A stretch of 64,000 nucleotides of DNA from Candidatus Omnitrophota bacterium (GTDB taxonomy: Bacteria; Omnitrophota; Gorgyraeia; Zapsychrales; Fredricksoniimonadaceae). The stretch is taken from the NCBI GenBank assembly GCA_903908245.1, contig CAIVRE010000008.1, positions 1,432 to 65,431 of the forward strand. Direction: 5' to 3'. Made by a program: the position numbers and the translations under genes. Shown piece after piece: positions 6,001 to 24,000 of the stretch (within the stretch, counting starts at the first letter, position 1; each line of letters opens with the position of its first letter). The notes under the pieces were generated by a model, which did not search any database, was not told the DNA's origin, and worked only from the letters and a program-made list of their open reading frames with translations.

Positions 6001-9000
6001 GCGGGCACGGTATTCATCCCGCACACGGACCCAGGACGCCTTGAAATCCTCCCAGATCGCGCGAACACACCCGGCAGACGCCGCACCCGGCGTGCCGTCA
6101 TCAACAAAATAATACCTGAGTTCCCGTGAAGGATTTTCCGACATCTGGACCAGGGCCTGCAGGAACTTCGCGCGGAGGGCATCTTCCCCGTTAGGATTCT
6201 CCCGGCTATACGGCATGGACCGCGCCATCTCGTTGAACATGGGGATGATCCACGCTTCGCGGATCACACGCCCGACAGGCGCGAGGCCCCGGTTCACGGA
6301 CGACGCTTCGCTGAACTTCACCTTCTCTTTCCCGGAACGCGGCTCAAGAGGAGAATGTTCCACCGGGCCGGCACGAGGCTCCTCGGCTTCACGCTTCAAC
6401 TTCGCCGTTCGAACAACGGCCCTGTTCCGGCTTAAGGCACGAATAACCAATACCGCGAGAATACCCAGCGTCACAATAATAGAAAGCTTGATCACTAATG
6501 GCGAAACCCCGATCGCGGACAATATCACCGGCGCCGCAAGCCAGGCATGGCATGGCATCCCCTTCTCCGAACGCCCGTCACCGGTGAAAACCAGCCCAAC
6601 GAACTGCTTGAATTCCGGCGAATCCAAACCAGCCTGTGCCGTGATCGATGCCGCGTCCAACTTCAGGTCTTCCGCCATGCCGCGCAAAATACCATAGATC
6701 TTCCGGGGATCCCCGCTGGAAGCGATCTGTTCAAGAGCGTCCTGCCAGACACGGCCCGGAATATGTTCAAGACCAAAATTGCCATCATATTCAACCAGCG
6801 CATTACCCTGTATGGTATACAACACCAGGCGCCACAGCTCCCCGGCCATCCTGCGGGTCGCGTTGTAAGCGTCAGTGGTATCAAAAAACGTTGTACGGCT
6901 TTCCGCGGACAGCCAGCCTTCTGCCTGAACCTTCCGTCGGAACGCATAAAAATTCGCCATGGTCCTGCGCTGCTGGACAGGGCTGGCGATAACGATGACC
7001 CGCACCGCAGAACGGGCCTGACGCCTTGCTTCAAGCCAGGGCAGGATATTCTGGAAATTCTCAAGCGTATTGGTGGACGCCGTCTCAAGCATGATCCGGC
7101 CCAGGGCCGGGGCACCGGGATGCTCATGGCGCAGGACAGCCTCAATAAGGCCCGCTTCACTCACTAGCGGCGCGCGGGCATTAAAGAATGCCATCTTCTC
7201 ATCGAGTTTCATGGCCTCGGACATCATGACATCGACAATGAGCCGGTATTCCGGGTGATCCATGGACGCGATCTCAACACCCTCGCGCAATCGTACCGTC
7301 ACCCCGCGCCTTAACGCCTCTCCCAGCGTTTTCCAGGTCAGCCGCCCGCGGCCGCTGGTGATAACAAGCTCCCTCACGTCCCCTTTTTCAAGAAGGCCAT
7401 ACGCCAGCGCCCATGTTTCCGGGACACACGACGCGCACAACACGGCCGCATCATACACGCCTTCCCTGCGTGACAACGCCCGGCCTCCATGAACGGTCAG
7501 GAAATCCACCAATGGCGCCAGCGGGATACGGACCGTCAACCGGGTCCCAGAGGGGATCCCCTCGCGCTCACCCTTGCGGAAACTGACCAGCTCCATGGAC
7601 CCGCCCAATCCCCGCGCGTATTCCCCGATGATCAACAACCCGCGCCCCCCCGTCCCCTTGGGCGATACCAGAGGGAACCTGGACAGATACCGCAGAGCCG
7701 CATCCATGTCCATCACGCCGCCCTCGGCAAAGAAACGGTCCCATTCCTGCAGGGCAGGATTTGGGCCATTCACTTCCCAGACTGTCCGCGTAGAATCCTC
7801 GTCGGCCAGCCAGGCCCTCGCGCCCTTCTCGATCGCGGACGGGTCGATCCCCTCACCCAGGTCACGGACCGACAGGCACAACGCGCCGTCGTCAATGACC
7901 GCGCAAAAAGCAGGCGGAGCGTCTTTGGGAGAAAAAACGACCGCGTTATTGAGCATCTCGAAAACGATCATCCCGATCTGATGCGTATCCATATCCGGCA
8001 GACTGGACGGCAGGTCGATCAACACCTCAAGCGAAGCCCCCGTCGGCGAAGCAGGATCGCTCACCTGCGCCCGGACCTCCTGTTCCACCGCGGAGACCAG
8101 CCCCGGGGCTGGAACAGCCTGCGGACGGGACATCACGGACAGTCCTGCAAAAACAGGGTCCAGGACATCATCGAGGAACAGATTGCGCGTCTTGCGCCGG
8201 CGCCCCTCGGCAAGAATATCCTTTTCAATACGGTCCAGTATCATGGAAAGCTCTTCCGGCGACTCAACGCGACGGATCAGCTCGTCCATGCGGCCATGCT
8301 GCAACAATCCATACGCCAGCAGGGCCCCGCGGCGATGGTCCGGGTCGCCATAGACCTTTTCCAGAAAATCGCGCGCCACCGTCACATATTGCTCAAAGAC
8401 CCTGAATTCCCCGCCGCAACGGTCAACAGCAGCCTCAAGCGCCGTCGCGATAAAGAACTTGAAGATGTAATATCTCTCTTTGGGAGACCACAACTCGGAC
8501 TCCATCTGCTGGAGAAAATCCAGGAACGCATCACGGTCCCCCGGCCTGAACTGCCGATACTGCGACTGTGCCATCGCCAGCGGAGAGAACGGCTTGGCTT
8601 CGGCAAAACGCGCCGCCAGCACCCCCAGAAGCTCCAGGATCTCGCGGCGCTCCCTGACATTGTTCTCGTCGGTCATTTCCGTCACGACACCCCGCGCGCG
8701 AAAAACCCGGTCGACCCCGTGCCACCCCTCCGCGCGGGACAACCGCCGGCGAACGCCCCAGGGGATACGCCGCAGGGCTTCCCCCGGCGTTGTCACCAGC
8801 GCCCTGAAATACGCCGGGGACAAAACCTCCCGACGAGTGCCATTGCGGATGGTCTGTCCGCTCAGCGGCGCCGGAAGCTCAACGAACACATCGTCCATAC
8901 CCTCCAACTGACACGCAGCAAAATATTCATGCCACCCCTGCACGATCTCGCGGCGTTCATTGCGCCCGAAATCATACCGCCCGCCGGCCAGGGCCATCAA

Positions 9001-12000
9001 AAGCCGCCGCAAAAGATTGAGCGACACTTCGCTGGAGATCCCCAGGGACGCCACCTCGCGCAACACACGCTCCCCCTCCGCCGGATGCGCCGCGATAAAA
9101 GCACGCAGGTCCCAGGCCGCGAGCAGGGCATTGTCCTTAAGCAGATCAAGCCCGTACCGCGCCGCCGTCTTTCCAAGCTCTCCGTCACCGCCCAGCGCCA
9201 GCACGGACAAAAGCACCGGCCGCTTCACCTGTCCTTCCACACGGGCCAGCATATCGAGCACGACCGTGTCAGTGACCGGGGACCGGATGGCCGCCTCGGG
9301 ATGTTCCGCGCGGTTGCGCGCGGTCACCGGATAAGGATAACGCGCCAGGACATCGCCCCCCATGTCAACGCCGATGGTCAGGACATCCTTGCCGCGGTTC
9401 ATCGCCAGATACTCTTTTGCCAGGGGTGCGCCGCCATAGGTCAGGTCCATCAGGACCAGGTCGATCCCGGCCGCCGCAAGGCCCTGGACGATCAGGCCCT
9501 CACTGATCCCGACGGATATCTGCCTGCCGCCCACATCCACCCGTGCGACCAGGCCCTCTTCTTTCAAGGGATAGAACAACCGTGTCCCCGACAAAGGCTG
9601 CAAGGGCGTAAAGATCCCGTTGCCTTCCGTCCCCAATGCCGCGGGCGGCGTCGGACCGCCGACTGGATTCTCCTCGCCGCGCTTGAGGTTGGTGGTAAAG
9701 ACCGTAAAATGCGGCACCGGGATCCCGTGTTCCCTGCACAACAGCGCGAGCATCCCGACAAAGAACGTCGCGCCCAAAGCGTCACCGCCCCCGCCAAGGG
9801 TCACAATATGGACTTCCTTGGGTGATCCCCGCAGGACATTAAGGAACAGATCATTGTTCAACACAGATGGTTTCGCGGCAAAAGAACGGGACAGGACCCG
9901 CGGCAGCCATCCCCAGGAACGACGGGCAGAAAAAGGCAGCAACGCCAGGACCTTGTCGGCCAGGGCAGGAAGGTCCTCGCACTCCGGCTCGCCGGCCTCC
10001 ATTGGCGCGACCTGATAATACCGGAAAGAACTATCCGGATACGCCGTGCCCTGCGTCCGCAGCACATCATGATCATCCACCAGCACGTGATACCCCAAAA
10101 GCCGCACATCCTTGATGCCCGGATATATCATGAAACGTTCGATCCAGTCCTCGGCCCGTTCCGGCGCATAAAGAGCATATGCCCCGGACAGGTCTTCAAA
10201 GAAATCCAGGTAATCGGCAGGATCCAGGTCATAACACGAATAATTTTCACGCGTGATGAAGAGTTCGAAATATCCGGCCAGTTGCGGGCAATGGTCGATG
10301 AACAATTCTACCGCCGGTCGCGCGGCATAACTCCACAACACCAAGCGGACCCCGGCATCTTCCAGCCGCTTCAATACTTTTGCCATACCCGGGCGGGCCG
10401 AATATGTATTCGTCACTGGATCATAAAGGGCAAGCGTATTGTCCATATCCATGGCCACCGTATGACGGCGGGAGGATATTTCACGCTGCAAACTGACGAA
10501 AGAATCCTTATAAATAGTTCCTGGGATAAAACGCGCATGAACCGGAACGCTTCTGGGATCAATGAATGCAGGGCAAGGCTGCGGACGAATGGCCTTCGCC
10601 GCTCTCCAGACCCCGCGCTTCCATCCCAGCCAGGCCAGGACCCCAAGCGCAACAGCAGCTCCCGCCAGCATCCAGGCCCCTCCCGCTGACGGCGCCATCA
10701 GGATCAGCGCCGGCCAGGCCGCGCACTGAAGCGACACGGACGGGTGCCGCCTGTCTTCTTCCGGACGGGATAAAAGCCTTTCAACAGACAGCAGCACAAG
10801 ATCCAACGCCTCATTCAAACCGGTTTTATGCCGTTCCGCTTCCATGTCATCAGGCGTCGTCAGAACGACCTCAAGTATAGCCTCCGCCCTGGACAGGGCG
10901 GCCGCAAGCGTGGCGTCTTTGGGATCAAGAATGACCGCCGCGTACGCCTTGAACCGCTCCACGACCGGCGCCGGCATGCTGAGCTTGACCCTGATCCCCT
11001 GGCGGTTAAGGTAGGCCCAGACCGGCCAGAACCGCGGCAGGGCCGCCATGTCCCCGCAAATGGAAGCGTCTTCTCCGGCGGCAGAGCCCGAAGCTGTCGT
11101 CTGGACAATAGCCCGCAAGACCCGCGGCGTCACATTCATAAAATACATTTCATGGTCCTTGGGATCAGCCCGGCGCACATTCGGATGCAGCGCCGCGGTA
11201 AGGTCGTTGGTCCCGAAACTGATGAACGAAGCCATCGTCAGGGCTTCCTGCGGCTCGGCGACCAGCTCCGCGGTCTCCACCATCGTCCCGACGGGGAATA
11301 AAACCTCTTCGTCCGGGACTCCTTCCATCCGGCGGGCCTCTGCCAGAAGGCCCAGGGCTTCTTTCATATCCGCGGCGGACTTGACCATCGGGAACATCAC
11401 CCGGAAATTGGTAAGCCCCCGGCGATAAAGCCGGATCCAGGCCCTGAACTGCTGCAGCGCGACCGCCCGGCCCAGCGGATGCTCCAGATACCACTTGTAA
11501 CCGACATACTTGATCCAGCTGAATGCCCGCGGCAATTTGTCTTCCTGCAGGTCGATCACGCGGAACGTGACCGACCGCCCTTTCGCCGCTTCCGCGATCC
11601 CGGTAAAAATGGCAAGCAACCGGTCGATCGACGGGATGGTCAGGCTCTCGTAAATGTTCTCCACCCGTACCAGTCCGATAAAATTCGCCCGCCAGCGCGT
11701 GACCGCATCCCCGATGAGCCGGCTATTGTCCGCATTGGCCCCTGCCACGATCCGTGGATCCTCCTCACCCTCAACAACGGCCGCCCTCTCTGAAACCGCG
11801 CCGGTCCCCGCCGCACGACGGGTCGAACGCCCCGGGTTGACCAGGATCCCGTCCGCCGTCAGAAGGACGCGCAGATCCTCATGAAGAGGGGTTCCCGCAT
11901 CCGCGAACGAAGCATCGATAACAATAACCGGAAGATTATAACTTTTGGCCATAAGCGCGTAATGAGACTGCGGCGAACCGGCCATATTGAGCACCGCCAG

Positions 12001-15000
12001 CAAACGCTTGCCGAACAGCGCCCGCAAACTCTCGAACTCGGAGGGGGTCGGCACATAGGACAATACCAGGACCACGTCATCCGGGATCTCCCCCATGCTC
12101 CTGGCGCGCACGCGGGACTGGGCTTCCACAATAATATTATTCGCCAGCGAAATAAGATACGGCCTTGCCTCCGCCGGAGGGACCTGGGACTCCGCCGCCA
12201 GTGCGGGAGTATCCGTCACTATCATCGCCTGCTCGTAAAGCTGCCGCCTGGAACTGAGATGCCTCCCCTGCCCGGACCCCAGGTGTATCAGCTCCCGTTC
12301 ACAATTCTCCAGCCAGTGCAGGGCAAGGGCAGACCAGTCCGCCGCCAGGGGCACATCGCGCCCCGCGGCATACCAGGAAGACAGCTGCGCGCGCTCCTCG
12401 GCCACGACTTCACGGATCACGTCCGCCATGTTCCCTTCAAACGCATTGAGGACCAGGCCCTTCAGGGCCGCATGCTGATATTCATGTTCATAAAAGAGTT
12501 CGTAAATGATCTCCTCGTAGATCGCGATCACCTCGGCCAGCTGTCCCTGCATCTTCAGCGAGAACAGGAGAGAACTTAAATGCTTCTCCCTTTTCGGGTC
12601 ATCCACAGGCGCGGCATTAAGGGCCGCCCGCGTCTGGGCAGAGGTTACGCGCATCGAGTCAATATAAGCCTGGACCTTGTCCATGCAATTGAGCAGGACC
12701 GCCTCCGCCCAGGACTCGCGCTGGACAGGCGCATCGAACGCCCTCAAAATATCGTTATGGACCATCTGCACATACACATTGTCGCAGACCACGATCCGCT
12801 CCATCACGGTATCGACCGCGGTCCGGCGCTGGCCGTCGCCGGAAAGGCGTTTTCTCTGCGCCTGCGCCATCTCGTCACGGTCCCCGATCGCCGGCAAATA
12901 ATAAAGATGCTGTTCCTTGGCAAGGCTCTGGACAAGAAGGGCGTACAGGGAATCATGAAAATCTTCGGTCTGCTCCAGCTGGCCCTCGCGGAATGCCCAG
13001 GAGGAAAGGACCTCCTTCTCCTCAGGTGCAACAAGATCGCCCACCAGCGCGATAGGATCGATCGGCAACTGCTGCAGGGCGGGGCTTGCCGCGACCCGGT
13101 CGATCAACGCCTCGATCGCAAGGACGGGGTTGATGCTTTTACTGCCAAAAAGTTTCTGCCAGAGGCTATGGCGCTCGCCCTGGTAGGCCGCGCGGACAAC
13201 AGCGGCAATATGATCAAGATTGCGCAGGGCCAGGATGATCCCCACCATATCGCGCGAAAGGGCATTACGCGTCAGCATCTTCAAATACCCGACCCCGGCG
13301 CGGATCCTCACACCGTTATCGGACAGCGGCACGATCTTCTGCTCCATCCGCTGGAAACGCTCGATGCGCTCGGCGACCGCCTCATAACCCGGTTCCTGCT
13401 TCTGCCCGTCCACGGCCTCCGAATGGCTGTAACCCAGCAGTTCAAGCACCTCATGGCGCACAATGACCCGCCGGGCGATGAATACTTCGTCAGGCGATGC
13501 CCCCTGGAACACATCACGGAAGATCTTGTGTGCCGCGCGGGAACGATAAATGACCAGGCTGTCACGCTCACCCTCCACCAGGTCATCAGCGATGACCGCG
13601 ACCTTGTTCAGCTCGCGCAGCGCGCCGTAACGAAGGGCCTTGGGAATATTGTCGTAATCGAACTGGGCAAAGCGGGCATCAACAACATGCGTGCGGCCGT
13701 CGCGGCCGTCAACAAGGACCGTGACCGCCGACAGGTTATCGACCGGGCTTGGCGTAACACGGCCCTCGCGGACCGCCTCCAGGAACGCCCCGCGCCCGCC
13801 CTCGTCGGTATCGCCGAAAAACCCGACCTTCCCCGTTTCGCGCGCCGCATCAACGGCCGGCAGGGCTTCAATATGCAATAACTGCACCTGACGCCAGCCC
13901 AGTTCCACATAAAGGCCATGCTCCCTCAGGACGCGGGCATCGACCTCGACGAACACCTGGCCGCTGACGGCATCAACGATACGATAACGCGGCGCCCCGG
14001 ACCTGAGCAGCTCGTCCATGTCCAGCTTCACAAAAGACTTGCCATCTTTCCCGGCATTGCCGATATGCGCCGCGACCACGGAAACATCCCCCTGATATTC
14101 GCGGATATAAGCCGCGATATCAGGATTTTCCCAGCCCGCCTTGGCATAGGCGTTGCGGCCGCTCCCCAGGCGATATAACGGCGCATTGACGACCTTAAGA
14201 AGCTCGTCGTAGAACGCCCGGAACTTCGGGTCGAACCTGTTCCAGTCGATCGGGGAACGCCGGTCATGCGGGCACGCATACCCCAGCACCGCCTCGGGCT
14301 GGCCGTTGAACAGCATGAACGGCCCCGGCAATGTCGCCAGCAGCCAGGCCACGCACTGGATCTCTTTGGACGTAAGCGTGCGGAGTTTCTCCATGGACGA
14401 ACGGAGGTCCTGATGGGCCGGATCGCGGATATCATGCCCGTCGGAAAGATGGATCGATGGCCCAAGGGCGCGGTCCGTAAAGAAGAACCGCTCCAGCTGT
14501 GCCTGAAAATAAGGCAGGGATCCTTTGCCGTGCAACACATCACACAAGGACGAGCTCAGGTCCACATCGACCATCGCAACATCGATGCCACACGCCTTGA
14601 GGACCAGGCGCTCCCGGTCATCACCCAGCGCTTCGGCCAGGAAGATCACCCCGGGATATTCCCGGCGCAATTCCCGCACCAGGACCGCCCAGAACTCCTC
14701 GGGGAACGCTTTTTCCACCTCGGCCTCACGGCCGGGATGCCATAATTTGATACGCTCTTTAAGCACGCCCTTGGGCGCGTCCAGGCGCAAGCCGCCAAAA
14801 CCAAGCTCCATCTTGTGGCGGGCGACCTTCATCAAATAAGGCACCACCTCGGGATGAAGAAGATCGAATTCCACACAATCCGCAAAATCCCAGGCCCCCC
14901 GGCAATCCGAGGCTTTGGCAAATGACCCGTTCTTTTCCTTGATGAACCACTCCGGATGGGCCCTGACCAGCGGGCTGTCGTCGGCGACATGGTTGGCTAT

Positions 15001-18000
15001 AAAACAATCCAGGACAACGATCCCCAGGCGGCGGGCTTCGCTCAACAGCTCTTTTAATTGCGCCTCCCCGCCGTAAGACGGCTCGACTGCCGTCGGGTCC
15101 CACAGCGCGAACGGCCATTCCCCGTTCCTGTTCGCCGATGTCCCCGTAAGCCAGATGACCTTGACGCCCTGTGCCGCCAGGCGCGGCAGGCCCTCTTTGG
15201 TAATATATTCGATCTGCCCGCCGGCCGGCCCGAAATCCCGCACCATGGCCTGATACCAGACACCCGCCGAAGCCTTGCGCAACGCCTCCGACGGACGAGC
15301 ATCAACGATATCATCGAACAGGCAATAAACGCTCTCGATCGCCGCGGCCAGGCTCCACGCCTGGGCCGGGCACCCTTCCCGGTTCCACTCGACAGGGCTC
15401 CGCGCGTTCCCGCTGAGGATCTCGGGGATCGAACGCCAGGTCGTGCCATCATTAAGGAATGCCTCGACCGACCGGAACCAGCCCGTTCCTGTCAACAACC
15501 CGGCTGTTCTCTCTTTCCCGTCCACATCAATACTGGCTTCAACAAAGCCCTTCATGAGCCAGGGCCAGATCGTCCCCTGATGATACGACTCGATATGTCC
15601 CTCGTTACGATGCTCGGCACGATACGCCTTGTCGTTCATCGACAGCGTCCGCAGTCCGAACGGCGTCAGCAATTCTTTCCTGACCGTATCGAGCGCCCGG
15701 CGCGCCCGATCCCCGCCGAGCAGGGCCGTACGGATCGCGAATACCTGGTTGGGCCGGACCTGGGCCTGCTGCCGCGGATCCCCGTCAATAACATCGAACA
15801 GGCATTGTTTTTCCTCATTCCAGAACTTCGCAAAGCCGGCAGCCACCCGCGCCGCCGCCGTCTCGTACCCGACGGCCCCGGCCTCATCACCCCTGAAACG
15901 CATCACGCGCGACATGAACAGGAGCCCGTCATACCACAACGCATTGATCTCGACGGCCTTGCCATGACGGCTGGTGGTCGGCCTGCCTCTGCCATCCTCG
16001 GGGGCCGCATCCATCCACGTCAAATTGGTATCCTCACTGCCTGCCGCAACAAGGCCGTCCGCCGGATCCATCCGCACACGCACGGTCTGGCGGTACTGCC
16101 CGCGCTCGCCCCAGACATCTTCGCAGGCAACACCCTCAAGGCTCTGCAGTTGCTCCATGATCCCGGCCAACACATCCAGGACTTTAACGGTCTTCCCCGC
16201 ATCCTTTCCGAACTTTCGCACAACAGGATCATTCAGGAAGGCGTAATCCCCGGTCGCTTTGATATGATCGCTGACCGCCCGGAACAGCCAAAAAGTAGCG
16301 TCAACGCTGTTATACCGCGGATCATTGCCGTTCCCGACAAGATTGGGCAACAGGCCGTCCTTGACGAAACGCAGATAATTCCTCAACACCTGCCGGAATA
16401 TTTCATGATTGCCGGTCATGGAACACAGAGCCGGCAGGGAGATCATGGTATCACGGCCCCAGTTCACGTAAGGCGCGCCGGAACGGCGGTCAAAATTCGG
16501 CATCCCGGCCACAACGGTCAGGCCGATATCGGGATCGTTCACAACAAAATCAAAAGCCGCCCGGCGCAAACGTCCGGCCAAAACCTTGACCTGGGCCGCT
16601 TCGTCATCCGGCATCGAAGAACGCCCTTCATCCAGGACACCGCGCAGGCACGCCGCAACAAAAGTCTCTCCCTGTTCAACCGCCCGCGCCTCCAGCGACC
16701 GGAGCATGGAACGGCGAAGTCCGTCAAGCCTGGCCGGGCCAAAAGCCATCACAAGGTCACGGACAACAAAAACCAGTGTCGTGCGCTCACGGGCACTGCG
16801 GCTCCCGGCCAATACCGCCAATACCGCGTCAATATTCTCAAGAGAAGCGAACCGCGCGCCTTCATGCCCGGCCAGGAACGCCAATGCAAGCGCTAGCCTC
16901 TGACGGACAGGATCCCTGTCCGCGCGGTCGAACAGGCCCGCCAGCCGCGCCGGAAAGGACGGATCGACCGGATATCCGAAAAGGACAGCCGATGTCAATG
17001 TCTCCCCGAAAAGAGCCGCCCAACGCACCGCCATATCCCCCGGCAACGTGATCCCCTGCCCGAACCCGCCAAGGATCCGTGCAAAAAGCTCAGGCGTCGT
17101 TTCCACCGCATCCGACAACCGGATCAGGGCCGTAATGCGGGCTTCCTCGTCATCCGATGTAAAATAAATATTCAAAAGCCGGTCGAACATCGCGGCCGCA
17201 TCCGCCGGCTTACGGACAACTTCAAAATAATTCCGGCTGTACGGGGCGGCCTCTCCCCGGCCGGCCGCAAAAACATGAACAGCCTGCTCAAGGATATCGC
17301 GCTGCGCCCGCGTATCGGCATCCGCCAGGGCCGCCAGCATCGACGGCATAATATCCTCGCCGGGCCGGTCCTGATGCTCATCCGCGAAATGGCGGGCCAG
17401 CCGGGCCAGCACTTCCCGGCGGGAAACATCTCTTTCTTTGCGATACCAGCCAAGCAGGGTCGGCAAAAGCGGATTGATCCGGCGGAACTTCTTCTCCGCC
17501 GTGGTCGATTCTTTAAGGCTCCCGTGGAACAACGCCTGCGCCAGCACAAAGATATCCCCGTCCTCATCCCGGCGGCCTCCCGGCACCATCATGCCTGCCA
17601 TCATCGCCATCCCGGCGGTCCCCGTATGAGAAGGAAAGGCCAAAGCCAGCGCAAGAACGCTCAACGCGACCAGGGCCCTGGCGACCCCGCGGCTTAAATG
17701 CCAGAACGGCTTGCAGGCCTCGCCAAAAGACATCCCGAGCGCACGGCCTTCAGGCCCGGCCACCGGAAGGGCATCCACCTCTTCCGCCGTGACCGGCGGA
17801 AAATGATCCATCAGCTCATGGTACAGCCCCCGGCGGTCCGCCGCATCCGGGCCGACAGCCTCGACCGCGGCCAGGAACTCCCGCTCCGCGCGCGCGAGCT
17901 TCAGGCCAAAAGCTTTTTTGGCGAAGAAATAATTGTAACGGAACAGCACCTCCGCCATGGCCATGATGCGCGTCTGCGGCACATACGACGGATGGTTCTG

Positions 18001-21000
18001 TTTCGGCCCGTCATACTTGCGGTACAGAACGTCCCGTGCCAGGTCGACCAGGCTCACCTGCTCGGACTGCTGGTTCCCGTGCTGATCGATATATTCGATC
18101 AACGCCAGGACATGCGGATCGAACAACCCTGTCTTCATGAAGCGCCGGGCCGTTACGATCATGTCGTTGCGCAGGACCCCCATGAGCTCATCCTCGGAGT
18201 AAGGTCCGAAACGGCCATGATGCTCCATGAACAGGTCGCAATTGCGCGGCTCCCGGCCCTGCAAGCAGATCCCCTCGTATTTTCCATTACCGGAGATAAA
18301 AATGACTCCGCGCAAATGATAGTGCACAAAGTTCGCCGTCTCCAGCGCGTTAAAGACCCTGAACTCGGCCCGTCCGCCCAGCGCCGGATAGACGGCAAAC
18401 CCGACCGCGACGGACTGACCGGCGCGGGCATCGCACAGCTTCTGCAGCGCCGCCAGGATCTGTTCATGGCCCTGCGGAAAAGCCTCGGCCAGCGGGGCCA
18501 TTATCTCCGACGGAGCCGAACGCAGGTACCCGCACACCCTTCCCGCCGCCATCGGCACCAGGATATGGGAATCGGTCAGCCACCGGAACACGGCGTCCGC
18601 ATCAACCCCTTCCGCGGCCAACAGGTTCTTGTCGATCTCGAGACGATACTGCCGAGCCGCGTTCTCGATCATGGACCTCATCTGCAGCGGATTTACCAAA
18701 GGCTGAAGGACTCTGCCCTGCGGATCAACGTTGACCTGAACATATCTCTCCCTCTCGCTGTCCTTCTCTTTAAAATGCTTCCTGAGCCGGTCTTCCAGCC
18801 GCGCCAGGTCATAGCGCCCCTTGACCTCGCTCCCGGCCAATTGCCCGCCGGCAAGGACATCCTCCGCCCGTTTCTGCGGGTCTGTACTGCCCGCGAACCG
18901 GTAGGCCGCAACAAGAATATCGCGCGCGCCGGGACTGGTCATGAACGCATCGGCCATCCGGTGGACGACCGACTGCTGATCATTGAGTTTCTTGCGGAAC
19001 CGGAAAAGCGACAGCGCGGCCGCGGCCCGTGCCCTGGCCTCATAGACCATGGCCTTCGAGAGCCAACGACGGAGCGGGATACGGGCCTCTCCCTCCATCC
19101 CCAGCTCGACAAGGCCGTAAGAATCATGATCACCGGTAGAGAAGAAATCCCGGTAACCGACAAAACGGACACGGAAATCATTCTTAAGCTCGATCTTCTC
19201 GAAGAACCGCTCAATGTCCTCGACATGGATCGCAATGTAGTCGGTGGTCGGCATCGACCCCAGCGGAGCCTCGTCCCGGGCCTGGTCTTTAAGCAGGGAC
19301 GCTTCCATCAGGCCTGTCATCTCGGCCGCCTCTTTGGTAAGGTCCACCGCATGCCCTTCCAGATGCAGGACCGCATAGCGGGAGGCCAGTTCAAGGGCCA
19401 GGTCGGCGGCCGGAACACCCCTTTTCAATTTGGCGATCGTACTTTCAAAACGGCGCCGGAGGCCTGCGATCTGGACATCCTTGCCGAACACCAGCTCGGC
19501 CGCGACCTTCTCGGCGGCGAGCTTGGCCAGCCGCTCGTGCAGGCGGCCAAAGTCACTGGCCCGAAGCAGGCTGACCGGATACGCCATGCCACGCAGATAT
19601 TTGCCTGCCACAGGCCCGTTCACATCCGGCCGGGACGCCAGATAGGCGAAAGACGTCACGCGCATCTGGTCGGCATAAACAATGTGGAAATAAATATCGT
19701 ACAACAGCGTCTCAAGCAATTCGCCGGAGGTCTTGCTGGAAGACACGTAACGCGCATAGTTGATGCGCAGGCGGCCATCGAGGATCTCGGCAACGTTCAG
19801 GGTCTTTGGATCAAAGGCAAAAAGGACCGAGGCAGGCATCAGGGCCTGCATCCCCGCGCTCTGCAATCCAAAACGGACATGATGTTCCAGCGCGTAATCC
19901 ACGTTCTTGGCAACATCCATCAGGCGGGAGAGTTCATCGATAAAAACCTCGCGCCCTTCACGTAAAAAGAGCTCGTGGAACCAGCCGATAAAAACATGAT
20001 CCATTTCCGTGATGCAAGAGGTCTCTGCCTGACTGGCAACAAGATCGGACAATAAAGTATGGAACGCACCGGCAGAAATGTCGGCCGGCACGGCCCTGGC
20101 ATTAACGAACTCGGTTACGCTCTTTTTATACGCCGCGCGCTGCTGGGCCGAAGAGCGCGCGATCAGCTGCCATGTCTCCCTTTGCACATTAGAGGTCGCA
20201 AATTTGAAATAACGATCTGCCGCCAGCTGGATAGCGACCGCTTCATTACGGGCAGACAGGTATATCTCGACCATATCCCCGGTGAGTTCCGCATCTTTCG
20301 GATCGACCCGGCGCACGTCGGTCAGCCAGGCCACAAATGTCTTTTTATCCACAAAAGAGCCCGGCGCCCAACGGACATCATTCCCGACCCTGGCCGCCAC
20401 CGGGAAATACGAATACAGAAAAATGGCCCCGTAACGATGCCAGGAAACATCCTTCTCGGCCATGACGACCTGGGTCTGATACAGGATACGGGAAACGCGC
20501 ATCAGCGCTTCACGCACCTCTTTGCGGCGGGAACGATAGGCGAACGACCGGAACGTCGCAGACGAAGCGATACGGGCTTCCTTTAAATGCGGCCAGAACA
20601 AAAGACGGAACACGCGCGACAGGACCACGCGCACCACCCCGTGCCAGCCGGCAAACAGCGCCGGCTCACCCAAACGCGCCCGTGACGAAGCAATGGAGCG
20701 CAGCGATAAAAGGAGCATGGCAATTCCCGCGATCCCTCCGGCCGCAAGCAAACACAATGAAACGATATGCGTTAAGGACATCCCGGCCGTGGCCAACACT
20801 ACCGGGAAAACCAGCCAGGCATGGCTGTAGAGTCGAACATCCTTGTCGGCAGGCAATGACGCGGGCTGCTGCCCGGGGAGCTCAACGCCATCAACCGTGA
20901 ACGCCTCGGCCAGGATCCGGCCCCAGGTGCCCGGCGCCAGGTCCCGGCGGGTATAAAGATCTCCCCCGGTGATCCTCCTGGCGGCCTCGATCATACGAAT

Positions 21001-24000
21001 CAGGGTCCTGTGCCACCCCTGCGATGCCACCGTGCGGACAAACGCCGCGCGCAGGCCGGTATTGGCAGGATCGATCTCACCCTTTTGGGCCTTCTCGGCC
21101 AGAAGCTCGTCGATATTGCGGCGTTCTTTGCTGTTAAGCCCGTCAGCCCCGCGTAACAGCACCGGATGCGGTACCAGAACGCCAAACAACGCAACCTTCG
21201 GCGAAAGCCGCTGATATTCTCCGGTCAATTCATGGATCACGATCCCCTGCGTGACCGTATCCACCACCGCGTCACCATTGAAAATGAACAGATACCCGCG
21301 CACATCCTTCATGCCCGCCGCGACACGGTCATATTTGGGCATCTTGTATTCGACCGTCGCGGCAATGGTCATGTCCATATCCGTACCGCGGTCCTCGGTC
21401 TTGGACTCGACCAGATAAACCCCTGCCGGCAGGACATTCGTCCGCTGATCGTTCTCATTCGAAGCCTGAGGCGCATCAACGGTCAATTCAAAATCTATTT
21501 CCGGATTCCCGAATGAGAACCGGGTGACCCTGGAATTCCGGACCGCATCCTCCAGGCTCCTGGCCGCAACAAGCTCGCCAAGGAACTCGACCTGCGGGCG
21601 GCCCCGGCCGTTGAAGATACGATTGAGAGTGAGTTCAACCCCGGGAACACGGCGCGCGATGAAATGCATCGCCGCCCGGAAGATGTCCGCAAACTCCGGC
21701 TCGCCGGCCATGATCTCCAGCGCCTGACGGGCTCTTGCCGACGTGACAAGATCATGCGGCTCATCATCGACCATGGCCGCGCGCTGACAAATATCATTCT
21801 CTGAAGCAGAAGGATCAACAAAATGCAGGAGCTCATGACGTGCGACCTTGCGCAGATCCTGCGGCGGTGCGCGCAAAGCGTAATTGTAGCTGACAAACAA
21901 ACGGCCGGCGGCAATATCAGCCTCGGCAATAATACCGGGGACGCTTTCCTCGATAGCAATACCATAAATATCAATACCCTCTGCGCCTTTACCGATCACG
22001 CGCCGGGCATCCGCCAGTGCCAGACGGACCCTGCCGCGAGCCTGGGCCTTCTCGATGTCCGTAAGCGGCACGCGCGGCTCGGTCTCCCCCTCGGGATATC
22101 CACGGCGCATGGGTTTCAGATGCGCGGTCAGCCACGGCACTTCCTGTGACCCGTACTCCCACAAAGCCGCTCCCGTCAACCAATACACCTTAGCCATACC
22201 ATCCGCGCGCATTTCCAGGAAGATCTGACTGTTGAAATCCAGGCAAAGCTCGGGACGGGCATTGTCAAGCATCGCATCCTTGATCCTCATCCCCGGCGTA
22301 GAAAGAGCCTCGAACCCGCCCCATGTGCCCCTGGAATGCCCCACGACCTGCGGCGGAATGCCTGGCACTGCCCGGGTCTGGTCGGCATCCGCCCAGAAAA
22401 TACCGCCGTACTCATTCCCGAAATTATCACTGGTCCTCGATCCCGGGACCCAGAAAAGCGGATGCGACATCACCCAGGCAATCTTCTCCTGGTCATCCCC
22501 GGCGTCGAGGACGATCTGCGCGGCCATACGAACGAAATCATTGATATACGCGACAACATCCCGGATCATCACCATCTGAACCGGGATCCCCTGCTGACGC
22601 GCCACTTCTTCCTTCAGGGATGCGAACATTTCCGGTACCAGCCCGCCATGAACGAACAGAACCCCTTTATGCAGGTACGCCCCGGGCAACCGGCCGGAAG
22701 CCGTTGCCTCAAGCACATACCTGCGCATTGCTTTATGTTCCGGCGTTGATTCGATCTGAAGCGAGCACAAAACCTTGTAAATACGGCTCACATGCCGGCC
22801 GCCGCGGATCTCGCCAAAGACCTTTAGCGGATCATTGGCCGCCTCCCAGCGCGCCCACCCGCCGGCGACAGGCGAAAGGTATTTCTGCTCGATCATCCAG
22901 TCGAACACCGACTCATCATCCGTGAACGCGCCCTTGCCAACGAATCCGTCGGCATTCCAGAGCATCAGCTCGTGATTCCCCATAAGCGTGACCACGCGCC
23001 CGCCGGCCTTCCCGGCCTCGACCTGCAGCGTTTCCAGGAAACGGAAAACGCTCATTGTATTGCGGATCCCCTCTTCGGTTTCCTGGCGCGTCACATCCCC
23101 CAGCTGAATGACCGTCGTATCGCCGCCGATCCAATGGTCCTGGTCATCGATCACCTTCATAAAACGCAAATGCGCGATCACGGAATCCAGCCATCCGTGA
23201 ACATCCGCCAAGACCACCGTACGGCCGGCCTTGTCATCAGCAGTGATCACCTTTGAAGTCGGAAGCGCCTGGACTTTGAAAGCGGACGTAGACGCCGGTA
23301 TCACGGGATCAGCCTTTACAACAGCCTCTTGGCTCTTCTTTCTCAACATCCAGGCAACAACAGAACCGGCCGCCAACGCCAAAAGCCCGGCGAGAGACGC
23401 ATAGAGGATCCACAGGTTGTTCACCGCCGGATGCGGCGCCTGCGGAACCACAGCTGATTGCGTTGCCGGGACATTGGGGACAATATTCGTGGACGGAACC
23501 GCGGGCTTAATGACCGCGGGAATCGTCGCAGGCTGAGCCGGAACATTAGTGACCGGTGTCACAACAGGCGCCGGAACCGTCGGCGCCACAGGCGCGGGCG
23601 GCTGAACAACCGCGACCGGCCGAGCCACTTTCTTCATCAACAGCTCGCGGACAACTTCCGCCGCAGGCTTGGGCGTCAGGTCGCTCTTGAAAAGACCAAA
23701 ATCATTCTCATTGGCGAAATTGTCATACGCCATACCCTCATGCCTGGCGCTGCCCGTTTTCCAGGACTCGTTGGTGAGCTCGAAAACAAACATACCCTTA
23801 AAGCGGGGATCCTTTGCCTTGTCGAGGCCCGCGATCATGCTCTTCAAAATATTACCGACCGCGCGAGTCTGCATCGGCGCATCCTCACGGCCGGTACGAT
23901 TGTTGAAAGAATCGGCGCCGGCCTCACCGAGCACAAGATGGACATCCTTCGGCATCCCCTCGGCAGAAAGCATCTGCTGCCAATCCCTGATGACACTCGC

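Follow-up and report, generated by a model that had tools for sequence, protein, structure and literature searches.

The stretch of DNA analysed (64 kb, hereafter the window) consists of one minus-strand reading frame of 21,333 codons, open at both ends (1..64000, the first full codon starting at 63999). Frame 2 of the reverse complement is free of stops throughout, against 259 to 1,332 stops in the other five frames, and thus the mega-protein assumed in a preliminary description of this DNA is real and runs past both window ends. The plus-strand ORFs of the ORF list are shadow ORFs of this frame. No internal repeats were found in the giant ORF within the 64-kb window, and enzyme-domain islands are sparse along it (PEP-utilising, HATPase_c, GNAT, GT2 and phosphoesterase). 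A GT2 proposed earlier at 5.45-6.15 kb and a GH-A barrel proposed at 23.65-24.5 kb were both retained, although more weakly. The former segment (5910..5494) matched dolichol-phosphate mannose synthase (5mlz, E=1e-10), and the block homologous to it in the relative L002 matched PF00535. The latter (24405..24070) matched a GH158 structure (9oro, E=4e-5), with no match from Pfam or NCBIfam.

Giant ORFs of Omnitrophota have been described as 'Archaeovorins' (West-Roberts et al. 2023 preprint) and as 'multi-enzyme metabolic' giants (2026 preprint). The ORF of the window resembles them in its length (>64 kb), scattered hydrophobic helices and sparse enzyme-domain islands. The preprints report a 'sugar metabolism' set centred on GT5 for this class, while no GT5 was found within the window; neither text (2023, 2026) mentions GDE_C or alpha-amylase domains. 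The window itself carries no marker gene.

The GDE_C and GH13 domains form a cassette at 13825..16608 on the minus strand, ~928 aa long and covering about residues 15,798-16,725 of the mega-protein. The family calls rest on Pfam, NCBIfam and PDB sequence searches and a fold search. The preliminary description, which left out the strand, had assigned the two families rightly and located the pair at 14300-16500, but its lower limit fell short, the GH13 domain reaching ~13825. The six peptide motifs it listed were all exact matches on the minus strand, in the frame without stops: WGRDTMISLPAL (16461..16426), YNSVDATFWLF (16314..16282), VEINALWYDGL (15954..15922), CPAQAWS (15372..15352), DCFIANHVADD (15009..14977) and GFGGLRLDAPKG (14802..14767).

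Hydrophobic, transmembrane-like segments are predicted on the minus strand ~360 aa upstream (N-terminal) of the cassette, at 17632..17688 (Kyte-Doolittle 19-residue mean 1.99), and next downstream at 10627..10707 (H=1.59-1.73). The ~2,300-aa stretch ending at the latter contains the cassette and PEP-utilising domains, the PtsI-like enzyme at 10936..12084 on the minus strand having a mobile His domain (12084..11920) and a PEP-binding domain (11751..10936; PF02896 1.7e-29, PF00391 0.0018, TIGR01417 4.5e-26). Apart from the pair, the 21,333 aa encoded by the window showed no GT5, GH77 or other glycogen enzyme, and this absence counts against an alpha-glucan role of the pair.

The GDE_C and GH13 domains

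The GDE_C domain, a GH133-type (alpha/alpha)6 amylo-alpha-1,6-glucosidase domain, covers 15337..16557 on the minus strand and was matched by PF06202 at E=1.9e-81, with 274 bits against a cut-off of 21. This match and that of PF00128 to the GH13 domain are far beyond chance. NCBIfam matches were TIGR01561 (1e-52) and TIGR01531 (4e-38), and phmmer matched human GDE (8zeq) at 8e-26. In the AF2 model this half (about residues 60-400) has pLDDT mostly 70-97 with short low-confidence loops, and its best fold match in Foldseek was Candida glabrata GDE (E about 2e-16).

The three acidic residues tested by mutagenesis in the yeast and human debranching enzyme are all kept (minus strand). The Asp of WGRD (16450..16452) aligns with C. 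glabrata Asp1078 and is Asp in 35 of the 35 aligned homologs. The Asp of TWMD (16009..16011), whose counterparts Asp1241 of C. glabrata and Asp1261 of the human enzyme are catalytic, is Asp in 37 of 37. By residue-by-residue alignment count the Glu of SIPEIL (15421..15423) corresponds to Glu1492 of C. glabrata and Glu1502 of the human enzyme, likewise catalytic, and is Glu in 37/37 homologs. Glucosidase activity is lost when these residues are mutated, in C. glabrata (Asp1078, Asp1241 and Glu1492; PMC4837477) and in the human enzyme (Asp1261 and Glu1502).

A linker of ~25 aa (15262..15336, minus strand) separates the GDE_C domain from the GH13 unit (13825..15261, minus strand); linkers of comparable length occur in L001 and the tri-domain family described below. 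The GH13 unit, recognised by PF00128, phmmer and the clade alignment, includes a TIM barrel with a short domain B and a C-terminal beta-sandwich, and aligns in full length with free-standing enzymes of 478-495 aa. The Alpha-amylase model PF00128 matched at 15189..14611 (E=3.2e-7, 30.4 bits against a cut-off of 22), and phmmer found 5ot1 (1.8e-15), 4gkl (2.7e-14) and 3dhu (2.2e-13). A profile from the alignment of the GH13 clade (A2), searched against PDB, matched TK-PUL (5ot1, 1.4e-38), the GH13_45 amylases 5a2a and 4e2o, AmyB (4gkl) and cyclomaltodextrinase (1ea9). These are all alpha-glucan hydrolases, and the closest solved relatives of the GH13 domain are enzymes of the intracellular-type maltogenic amylase, neopullulanase and pullulan-hydrolase kinds. 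In the fold search GH13 structures matched the non-GDE_C half of the model. Beta strands are present at residues 845-930 with low confidence, and pLDDT is below 50 in the GH13 second half, which counts against reading the pair as an alpha-glucan cassette.

The GH13 domain has its conserved regions I-IV and VII (all on the minus strand), and its Asp-Glu-Asp triad is intact and invariant in A2. Together with the three GDE_C acidics this leaves both active sites intact, a point that the preliminary description had marked for checking. Region I (VVLDCFIANH, 14989..15018) has an Asn-His invariant in the clade. Region II (GFGGLRLDAPKG, 14767..14802) includes the nucleophile Asp (14781..14779; D169, invariant in A2). 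Its usual terminal His is Gly in the window, which also counts against the alpha-glucan reading; 5ot1 likewise is without the His (DVPNE). Region III (VIFLAEAL, 14626..14649), aligned to LLGEVW of 4e2o, carries the acid/base Glu (14634..14632), invariant in A2 (E218) and present in 35/35 sequences of alignment A1. Region IV (HLSDGHDIRD, 14422..14451), whose His and transition-state Asp lie at 14436..14434 and 14433..14431, aligns with VDSHD of 5ot1 and LDNHD of 4e2o. Its D282, H284 and D285 are invariant in A2, and MAFFT pairs its GHD with EHD of the tri-domain family. Region VII (FMLFNGQPEAVLGYA, 14275..14319) contains FNGQPEAVLGY, with N327, E331 and A332 invariant in A2. After region II there is a clade-specific insertion of ~20 aa, ERIKLWHPGREAEVEKAFPEEFW (14689..14757), opposite a gap in 4e2o and 5ot1; it is kept across the clade as NWYxGRExEVDKxFPEEFW (A2) and absent from solved GH13 structures.

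PF14701 (hDGE_amylase) was not among the Pfam matches at E<=0.01. The GH13 domain, with hydrolases as its closest solved relatives, is not the GDE-type transferase domain, and transferase activity cannot be read from its sequence.

The same folds could also carry a different chemistry. What the six-hairpin domain hydrolyses would then be a compatible solute or some other small alpha-glucoside (trehalose, glucosylglycerate or mannosylglycerate). With a GH13 domain that is a transglycosylase resembling TreS or GlgE, the pair would serve trehalose/maltose-1-phosphate interconversion or osmolyte turnover, not debranching. Such a role agrees with weak overlapping matches to trehalase TreA (NF009774, 2.7e-5), weak matches of relatives to MGH1-like GH (PF22422) and weak matches of the GH13 half to TreS and GlgE; a 2014 survey also found direct functional evidence for no bacterial GDE_C protein, GDE_N-GDE_C proteins included. 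It is nevertheless improbable: the GDE models (TIGR01561, TIGR01531 and PF06202, E-values above) lie far above the trehalase models, GDE is the best fold match, TreS (about 1e-25 to 1e-22) comes well behind the structures of amylases and pullulan hydrolases (1e-38 to 1e-30) in the clade-profile search, and the fusion partners are GT5 and GH77.

Relatives and fusion partners

The cassette aligns in BLASTP as a single collinear block (49% identity) with a giant ORF from an Omnitrophota MAG (locus L001). Its flanks could not be aligned and neighbouring blocks are in different order, the block homologous to the PtsI-like neighbour being upstream of the cassette in L001. That the domains are a catalytically irrelevant relic, kept in a scaffold protein only to bind glucan or as structural spacers, is very improbable. 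Giant ORFs are poorly conserved overall with shuffled domain order, the region II Arg is lost in L002 and L030 has an in-frame stop, but every catalytic residue of both domains is kept in the window and L001, and no other block is as well conserved between these two giant proteins, which cannot otherwise be aligned, as the cassette.

The GDE_C-then-GH13 pair recurs in bacterial GT5-GDE_C-GH13 proteins of ~1,540 aa (e.g. P0001, P0002 and P0006), in a GH77-GDE_C-GH13-GT5 polyprotein (P0135) and in the L001 giant ORF, and GH77-GDE_C fusions are also present (P0035, P0126). These GDE_C-GH13 fusions, including the tri-domain proteins, are known from sequence alone. The closest relatives of the cassette carry Omnitrophota labels. 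The tri-domain proteins are labelled 'glycogen debranching enzyme/glycosidase' or 'glycogen/starch synthase [Planctomycetes bacterium]'. They share with the window the domain order, a comparable short linker, the catalytic residues and collinearity over ~800 residues (36% identity, E=2e-139; residues 623-1383 of P0006), their GDE_C halves being 44-49% identical. The window differs in having no GT5 upstream of the cassette or anywhere, and the GH13 halves are only ~25% identical, with differences in regions II-IV and domain B length. The tri-domain proteins are also free-standing and without hydrophobic helices.

The GH13 domain of the window belongs with a separate clade, made up of free-standing enzymes of 478-495 aa and of domains within other long proteins (P0129, P0134, P0138, P0149, P0165; P0127, P0128, P0131; L001, L002). 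The solved structures nearest to it are TK-PUL 5OT1, the GH13_45 amylases 5A2A and 4E2O, and GH13_48 AmyB 4GKL and 3DHU. Identity over the full GH13 unit is 31-49%, and the signatures DFxxNHVS, GFDGLRxDAP, FLAEA, KDGHDIRD and NGExEAVLGYAY and the insertion after region II are held in common. A short domain B is common to them as well; this feature and, in the window, the GQ ending region VII agree with the description of GH13_48/49/38 (PMC11239784). Most clade members, known from sequences, have GE in place of GQ and Leu or Ile in place of Cys before the nucleophile, and are unfused to GDE_C. Since the GH13 domain is closer to this clade (31-41%) than to the tri-domain GH13 (~25%), the two domains may have been paired anew, or the GH13 domain replaced, which also counts against the alpha-glucan reading.

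Eukaryotic GDE/AGL (C. glabrata 5D06, human 8ZEQ) likewise combines a GH13 barrel, the GH13_25 4-alpha-glucanotransferase, and a GDE_C six-hairpin barrel, the GH133 amylo-alpha-1,6-glucosidase, in one polypeptide, and shares the homologous GDE_C half and its mutagenised acidics with the window. The earlier term 'glycogen-debranching-type pair' holds with reservations: in comparison to the animal and fungal enzyme the order is reversed, GDE_C coming first, and the GH13 is of another lineage with hydrolases as solved relatives. Furthermore, hGDE_N, hDGE_amylase and hGDE_central were undetected in the window (Pfam), TIGR01531 scores 130 against a cut-off of 1,399, and the cassette is one module of a >21,333-aa protein. 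Prokaryotic GDE_N-GDE_C proteins (GH133; TIGR01561, 'putative glycogen debranching enzyme, archaeal type') have a homologous GDE_C (37-40% identity), but are ~650 aa long and unfused to GH13, while the window is without GDE_N (PF12439) and scores 180 against the TIGR01561 cut-off of 364.

Location and predicted function

The preliminary description allowed either a polysaccharide envelope or a storage glucan as target. The evidence favours the storage glucan, and envelope attack has no specific support from the pair. The latter would have the cassette exposed on the giant protein's outer side, as an extracellular weapon that degrades or remodels surface polysaccharide of prey or host, and derives solely from the general predation hypothesis for giant proteins. 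Cell-wall degradation by such proteins has been proposed (10.1101/2023.11.21.568195), and secretion and CAZyme genes flank giant-protein genes (10.64898/2026.06.07.730766). The Lys/Arg bias around the hydrophobic segments on either side speaks weakly for a non-cytoplasmic ('outside') cassette, several long relatives with complete N-termini have a signal-peptide-like start, and the ORF has GH158-like and GT2-like segments elsewhere. However, a PEP-dependent domain occupies the same inter-helix stretch as the cassette, and in L001 the cassette lies in a ~5,000-aa stretch without a hydrophobic helix and with ATP-, SAM- and PEP-dependent domains. The cassette also includes 12 cysteines in 928 aa (two family-invariant), whereas only six fall within the ORF's first ~11,500 residues. 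An extracellular weapon is accordingly unlikely.

The storage glucan is favoured because alpha-glucans, the substrates of GH133 and of this part of GH13, serve for storage and are not typical of cell walls, because the same pair is fused elsewhere to GT5 starch/glycogen synthase and GH77 amylomaltase, because free-standing GH13 relatives and tri-domain proteins are without signal peptides, and because a Sulfolobus (archaeal) GH133 null mutant accumulates excess glycogen (PMC11046441). Fusion partners and nearest solved structures all point to trimming and debranching of an alpha-glucan (glycogen or maltodextrin), not to envelope attack. The lack of glycogen genes in the gene neighbourhoods of the free-standing relatives counts against an alpha-glucan role.

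The cassette combines known families in a variant architecture, inside an already described giant-gene class. On balance it is probably a catalytically competent two-enzyme alpha-glucan cassette in a giant multi-enzyme protein like those described from Omnitrophota. It may work in the cytoplasm of the producing cell, in the periplasm or outside, or in a prey cell. The N-terminal domain is a GH133-type (alpha/alpha)6 inverting glucosidase, with the fold and active site of the glucosidase half of eukaryotic GDE, and would take off alpha-1,6-linked stubs. The GH13 domain ~25 residues on is a retaining enzyme that, by hydrolysis or transfer, would shorten or rearrange the alpha-1,4 chains of a branched glucan, glycogen or maltodextrin. 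On one polypeptide, the two domains would then do the job of eukaryotic GDE, but with their order reversed and a GH13 domain of another lineage.

The paired GDE_C and GH13 domains

The preliminary description placed a glycogen-debranching-type pair, a GDE_C domain followed by a GH13 domain, at 14300-16500 inside a mega-protein. All six peptide motifs quoted for it were found exact in the stop-free frame of the minus strand, from 16461 to 14767, and the identity of the two domains was borne out by Pfam matches above cut-off for both and by agreeing sequence and fold matches. The pair is present at the coordinates 14300-16500, but the GH13 unit reaches beyond them: the block conserved with the giant ORF of L001, a locus from a Candidatus Omnitrophota MAG, covers 16608..13825 on the minus strand. 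About 25 residues link one domain to the other.

GDE_C (PF06202; 16557..15337) scored 274.3 bits in Pfam (cut-off 21; E=1.9e-81), with profile positions 3-366 of 367 covered. The NCBIfam models for whole debranching enzymes (GDE) also matched, TIGR01561 of the archaeal type with 1e-52 (179.6 bits, cut-off 364.15) and TIGR01531 of the eukaryotic type with 4e-38 (130 bits, cut-off 1,399.55; model positions 1003-1442 only), both staying under their full-length cut-offs as expected of a single domain. Among PDB sequences, the first half of the cassette matched human GDE (8e-26) and Candida glabrata GDE (9e-23). The AlphaFold2 model, constructed with 37 homologs, had a mean pLDDT of 64.5 over the whole cassette; its GDE_C half was helical, and block-mean pLDDT over residues ~60-400 lay mostly at 70-97, short loops of low confidence excepted. 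When the model was compared with the PDB using Foldseek, C. glabrata GDE ranked at the top (E ~2e-16, probability 1.0) and many GH13 structures came next. By model and fold match, the GDE_C half has the (alpha/alpha)6-barrel fold.

The three acidic residues of GDE_C could be placed by HMMER alignment. The leaving-group Asp of WGRD (16452..16450, minus strand) corresponds to C. glabrata Asp1078 by alignment count, the catalytic Asp of TWMD (16011..16009, minus strand) to C. glabrata Asp1241 and human Asp1261, and the catalytic Glu of SIPEIL (15423..15421, minus strand) to C. glabrata Glu1492 and human Glu1502. All three are kept in every homolog covering the position (35-37 aligned), and mutating each of them abolishes or strongly lowers glucosidase activity (PMC4837477; PMC12219210). 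The domain, assigned to family GH133, is predicted to hydrolyse alpha-1,6-linked glucose stubs (EC 3.2.1.33).

For the GH13 domain, the Pfam match to Alpha-amylase (PF00128; 15189..14611) scored 30.4 bits (cut-off 22) and included only profile positions 25-247, and NCBIfam gave only weak generic GH13 matches. The unit is longer than its Pfam match: free-standing enzymes of 478-495 aa match it end to end, and its C-terminal part aligns in sequence with the C-terminal parts of the pullulan hydrolase TK-PUL (5ot1) and of a GH13_45 amylase (4e2o). Model residues 845-930 form beta strands, where a putative domain C beta-sandwich would follow the barrel; pLDDT was moderate for the barrel's first half, below 50 for its second and poor throughout the remainder. 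In the sequence search of the PDB, the GH13 half matched TK-PUL (1.8e-15), AmyB (4gkl; 2.7e-14) and a Lactobacillus plantarum amylase (3dhu; 2.2e-13). With the profile of the GH13 clade, which includes free-standing enzymes and domains of long proteins, the best match among GH13 structures was 1.4e-38. The top ranks were held by TK-PUL, GH13_45 amylases, AmyB (GH13_48) and a cyclomaltodextrinase, all of them alpha-glucan hydrolases, some with transglycosylation side activity. No homolog came up at E≤1e-20 when the GH13 half by itself was used in a word-index search, which is a sensitivity artefact, as relatives exist.

A check of the catalytic residues in alignments, which had been named as a possible refutation of the pair, spoke in its favour: both the GDE_C acidic residues and the Asp-Glu-Asp of GH13 are intact. 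All GH13 motifs lie on the minus strand. Region I, DCFIANH, aligned to 5ot1 and 4e2o; region II, GLRLDAPKG, contains the nucleophile Asp (D169; 14781..14779), and region III, VIFLAEAL, the acid/base Glu (E218; 14634..14632), pairing with LLGEVW of 4e2o after allowing a 20-residue insertion. The His-Asp of region IV, LSDGHD (H284 and the stabiliser Asp D285; 14436..14431), aligns with VDSHD of 5ot1, and region VII was found as FNGQPEAVLGY by sequence alignment. D169, E218, H284 and D285 are all invariant in the alignment of the clade. At the end of region II, where a His is typical of GH13 though not universal, the window has Gly, the tri-domain family of GT5-GDE_C-GH13 proteins has Ser, and the clade has mostly Gly or Ala; 5ot1, the best structural relative, is likewise without the His (DVPNE).

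Four features have been given for the subfamily GH13_48 of AmyB-like maltogenic amylases (PMC11239784, Janecek's group): a Cys (or Ala/Val/Leu) preceding the nucleophile, a region VII with GQ at its end, a region V with L-[DN] at its end, and a domain B some 30-40 residues long. Compared without region V, the window GH13 has traits of this type: Leu before the nucleophile, NGQ and a short domain B. The alignments to 4gkl and 3dhu extend mainly over the first 160-200 residues of the GH13 half, and the clade profile scores TK-PUL and the GH13_45 structures as well as or above the GH13_48 ones. The clade itself has the signatures GFDGLRxDAP, FLAEA, KDGHDIRD and NGExEAVLGYAY, together with a conserved insertion of ~20 residues after region II that is absent from the solved structures.

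Relatives of the cassette and their domain architectures

The best database matches to the pair were proteins of ~1,540 aa with 36-37% identity over ~78% of the query. In Pfam they consist of GT5 (starch/glycogen synthase-like), then GDE_C and then Alpha-amylase, in order and spacing as in the window. The window is collinear with only the GDE_C-GH13 part of these tri-domain proteins (E=2e-139): it gave no alignment to their GT5 part (residues 1-620 of P0006, P0002 or P0122), and PF08323 had no match anywhere in the window. Neither Pfam nor phmmer searches with the GT5 and GH77 parts of the relatives found a GT5 or GH77 partner in the whole ORF.

The two halves of the cassette have partly different relatives. 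Nearest to the GDE_C half were fragments of giant proteins with 61% (P0007), 57% and 50% identity, followed by the tri-domain family with 44-49%. The GH13 half was nearest to that of L001 (49%); GH13 domains of other long proteins followed with 36-41% and the free-standing enzymes with 31-37%. With 31-49% identity to these and only ~25% to the tri-domain GH13, the window GH13 is assigned by sequence to a clade distinct from that of the tri-domain proteins. The closest relatives of the cassette, P0007 and L001, carry Omnitrophota or Omnitrophica labels, which indirectly suggests an Omnitrophota genome for the window, itself devoid of marker genes.

When 1.84 billion cluster representatives were searched exhaustively with HMMER, 5,705 proteins matched at E≤1e-3, many of them long and with one or both domains. 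Their architectures included GH77 - GDE_C - GH13 - GT5 (P0135), GH77 - GDE_C (P0126 and P0035) and GT5, GH13 and GDE_C in still another order (P0122). The gene neighbourhoods of two tri-domain genes contained no glycogen operon.

In a scan of one genome per species, the L001 locus of 22.8 kb was found to be a single ORF with a cassette 49% identical to that of the window. Only two blocks of it align with the window, the cassette and a PEP-utilising block, and their relative order differs, which indicates that the enzyme islands are conserved and shuffled and the linking sequence is not conserved. The domain order of L001 (JBAZMA010000001.1) begins with PEP-utilizers_C, a mobile domain, PPDK_N, CheR, GDE_C and GH13, and goes on with a Kdo-transferase N domain, GGDEF, HATPase_c, GNAT, a methyltransferase and a LOG-like domain.

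A metagenome scan with the GH13 clade alignment confirmed at least three loci. One free-standing member of the clade, of 479 aa (L031:9962-11401) and the only one of these loci with an informative context, lies amid the housekeeping genes MlaEFD, a HEAT-repeat protein, purB and ispG, and no glycogen genes were found within 10 kb of it. Another homolog (L030:1113-2561), 51% identical across the full domain, has an in-frame stop near 1977; recoding, an error of the assembly or decay to a pseudogene could account for it. L002 (CAYYAU010000045.1, binned as Clostridia) is a contig of 8.3 kb that a single ORF fills without interruption, with sigma-70 region 2, alanine dehydrogenase, GH13 without GDE_C, GT2 and NUDIX domains; its GH13 region II has Phe in place of Arg. 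This contig is probably a misbinned piece of a giant gene.

The giant reading frame and the location of the cassette

The mega-protein proved real: reverse-complement frame 2 of the minus strand had no stops in 21,333 codons (first full codon at 63999) and was open at both ends, and the other five frames contained 259 to 1,332 stops each in the window. The 35 ORFs of at least 150 aa listed by the ORF finder on the plus strand, all of moderate size, are shadow ORFs of this frame, which is itself missing from the list because the listing omits ORFs running off both ends. Plus-strand frame 1 was poor in stops, above all in TAG (9 of 259 stops). An alternative genetic code, considered on this account, was dropped after the minus-strand frame without stops had been found. 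With more than 64 kb free of stops, islands of enzyme domains and ~20 hydrophobic segments, the ORF has the features of the giant ORFs of Omnitrophota, defined by a length of at least 20 kb, and of their Archaeovorin / multi-enzyme metabolic class. No internal repeats and no second copy of the cassette were found in a search of the whole ORF.

The same ORF includes, on the minus strand, DUF1152 (9486-9163), HATPase_c (7989-7516; below cut-off), DUF218 (7299-6928), a calcineurin-like phosphoesterase (23223-22858) and weak matches to DEAD/SecA-like proteins (41481-41185) and, near 2.7 kb, to GNAT. A GT2 and a GH-A TIM barrel had also been proposed for it. The former was recovered at 5910-5494 (minus strand) with a match to dolichol-phosphate mannose synthase (5mlz, E=1e-10) and weak AglJ/DPM-type matches in NCBIfam; this block is 38% identical to L002:5512-6480, which matches PF00535. 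As to the latter, the segment 24405-24070 (minus strand) weakly resembles GH158 9oro (E=4e-5), GH158 being a family of clan GH-A, but it had no match in Pfam or NCBIfam.

The composition changes within this single ORF. GC content is 0.46-0.50 for 64-44 kb against 0.54-0.63 elsewhere. The first ~11,500 residues (64000 to 29500) are Lys-rich, mostly Ser/Thr/Asn-rich and without a confident Pfam domain, and contain six Cys, two of them adjacent. The last ~7,000 residues are Arg-rich, with 3-8 Cys per 500 aa, and include all the confident enzyme domains. The change could separate an exported from a cytoplasmic part, or it could reflect a chimeric origin.

The evidence on whether the cassette works in a cytoplasm-like compartment is conflicting. 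Such a location agrees with the inter-helix stretch from 17688 to 10627, in which the cassette lies together with a PtsI-like PEP-utilising enzyme. This enzyme, just downstream of the cassette (12084-10936, minus strand; TIGR01417, 4.5e-26), consists of a mobile His domain and a PEP-binding barrel; neither an ATP-grasp domain nor the N-terminal HPr-binding domain was detected. In L001 the homologous PEP-utilising block lies ~2,400 residues upstream of the cassette, and PPDK_N is present too. There the first 5,027 residues have no hydrophobic segment, and the cassette stands within them beside domains using ATP (PPDK_N), SAM (CheR) and PEP. Also the free-standing relatives and the tri-domain proteins are without a signal peptide, and the cassette is the most Cys-rich part of an ORF so poor in Cys over its first ~11,500 residues. 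The Lys/Arg counts at the flanking helices, however, lean towards 'outside', and several long relatives with complete N-termini open with signal-peptide-like sequences.

Such complete N-termini, signal-peptide-like or anchor-like, were seen in P0128, P0130, P0131, P0133, P0135, P0228 and P0236 (e.g. MKKSSIIIKKILSIGIITSFVFTAAIGNADA), and the motif D[IL]AWA[IY]P recurs in P0128 and P0131. The long relatives with signal-like N-termini bear ADP-glucose-, ATP- or NAD-dependent domains. The same paradox has been discussed for the giant-protein class (2026 preprint, 10.64898/2026.06.07.730766).

Putative function and comparison with known debranching enzymes

The best-supported reading of the pair is a cassette for alpha-glucan trimming and debranching, in which GH13 would act on the alpha-1,4 chains and GH133 on the alpha-1,6 stubs. 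It is based mainly on 'Rosetta stone' fusions, GDE_C being repeatedly joined to an alpha-1,4-active enzyme: to GH13_25 in eukaryotes, to GH77 in P0035 and P0126, and to GH13 in the window and the tri-domain family. Further fusions join GDE_C to glycogen synthase, and in Sulfolobus the loss of GH133 in a null mutant leads to accumulation of glycogen (PMC11046441). Between the two substrates that had been suggested, a storage glucan is thus favoured, but the pair lends no support to an attack on a polysaccharide envelope. The GH13 domain may carry out either chain transfer, as in the indirect debranching of eukaryotes, or plain hydrolysis; the solved structures nearest to it are hydrolases.

In eukaryotic GDE the GH13_25 transferase is N-terminal to GDE_C, whereas in the window the order is reversed, and the eukaryotic GDE domains PF14701, PF14699 and PF14702 had no Pfam match in the window. 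The domain PF12439 of the prokaryotic GDE_N-GDE_C arrangement was not found in Pfam searches of the 800 residues upstream of GDE_C. A phylogenomic survey of GDE_C reported only GDE_N-GDE_C from prokaryotes, for which there was at that time no direct functional evidence. Giant ORFs of Omnitrophota in which enzyme domains are scattered have been described by Seymour et al. 2023, by West-Roberts et al. (2023 preprint, 10.1101/2023.11.21.568195), with GT5 glycogen-synthase-like domains as the commonest glycosyltransferase, and by the 2026 preprint, in which a 'sugar metabolism' domain community was defined. The texts of these three do not mention GDE_C or alpha-amylase domains. The permuted GDE_C-GH13 cassette thus appears to be undescribed in the literature found, though databases annotate its members automatically. 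It is the architectural variant that is new, the enzyme families and the giant-gene class being already known.

A far wider reading, to which little probability is given, takes the cassette as a prokaryotic, domain-permuted 'indirect' debrancher, independent of the eukaryotic GDE or ancestral in kind to it, and as a single stop along a 'pathway on a string', tethered to the membrane, that would combine alpha-glucan turnover with other cofactor-dependent enzymes in episymbiotic or predatory Omnitrophota. The relatives' signal-like N-termini, next to domains dependent on ATP, PEP and SAM, would on this view place the working array in a foreign cytoplasm, where it might for instance mobilise glycogen of methanogen prey.

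The cassette alone does not tell what the giant proteins are for; it sharpens the question of how cofactor-dependent enzymes sit behind signal-like N-termini. Few blocks are conserved between giant proteins that do not align elsewhere, and as one of them the cassette lends itself to expression and assay. Its GH13 clade is set apart by KDGHDIRD and the insertion after region II, and no characterised member of it was identified in the literature found. On the trimming and debranching reading, the eukaryotic GDE would have in this pair its bacterial counterpart, with the opposite domain order and another GH13 lineage. With the recurrent fusions to glycogen synthase and amylomaltase, whole alpha-glucan pathways appear to be encoded as single polypeptides, and the kind of substrate suggests that the giant proteins, at least in part, handle storage-type sugars and not cell walls.
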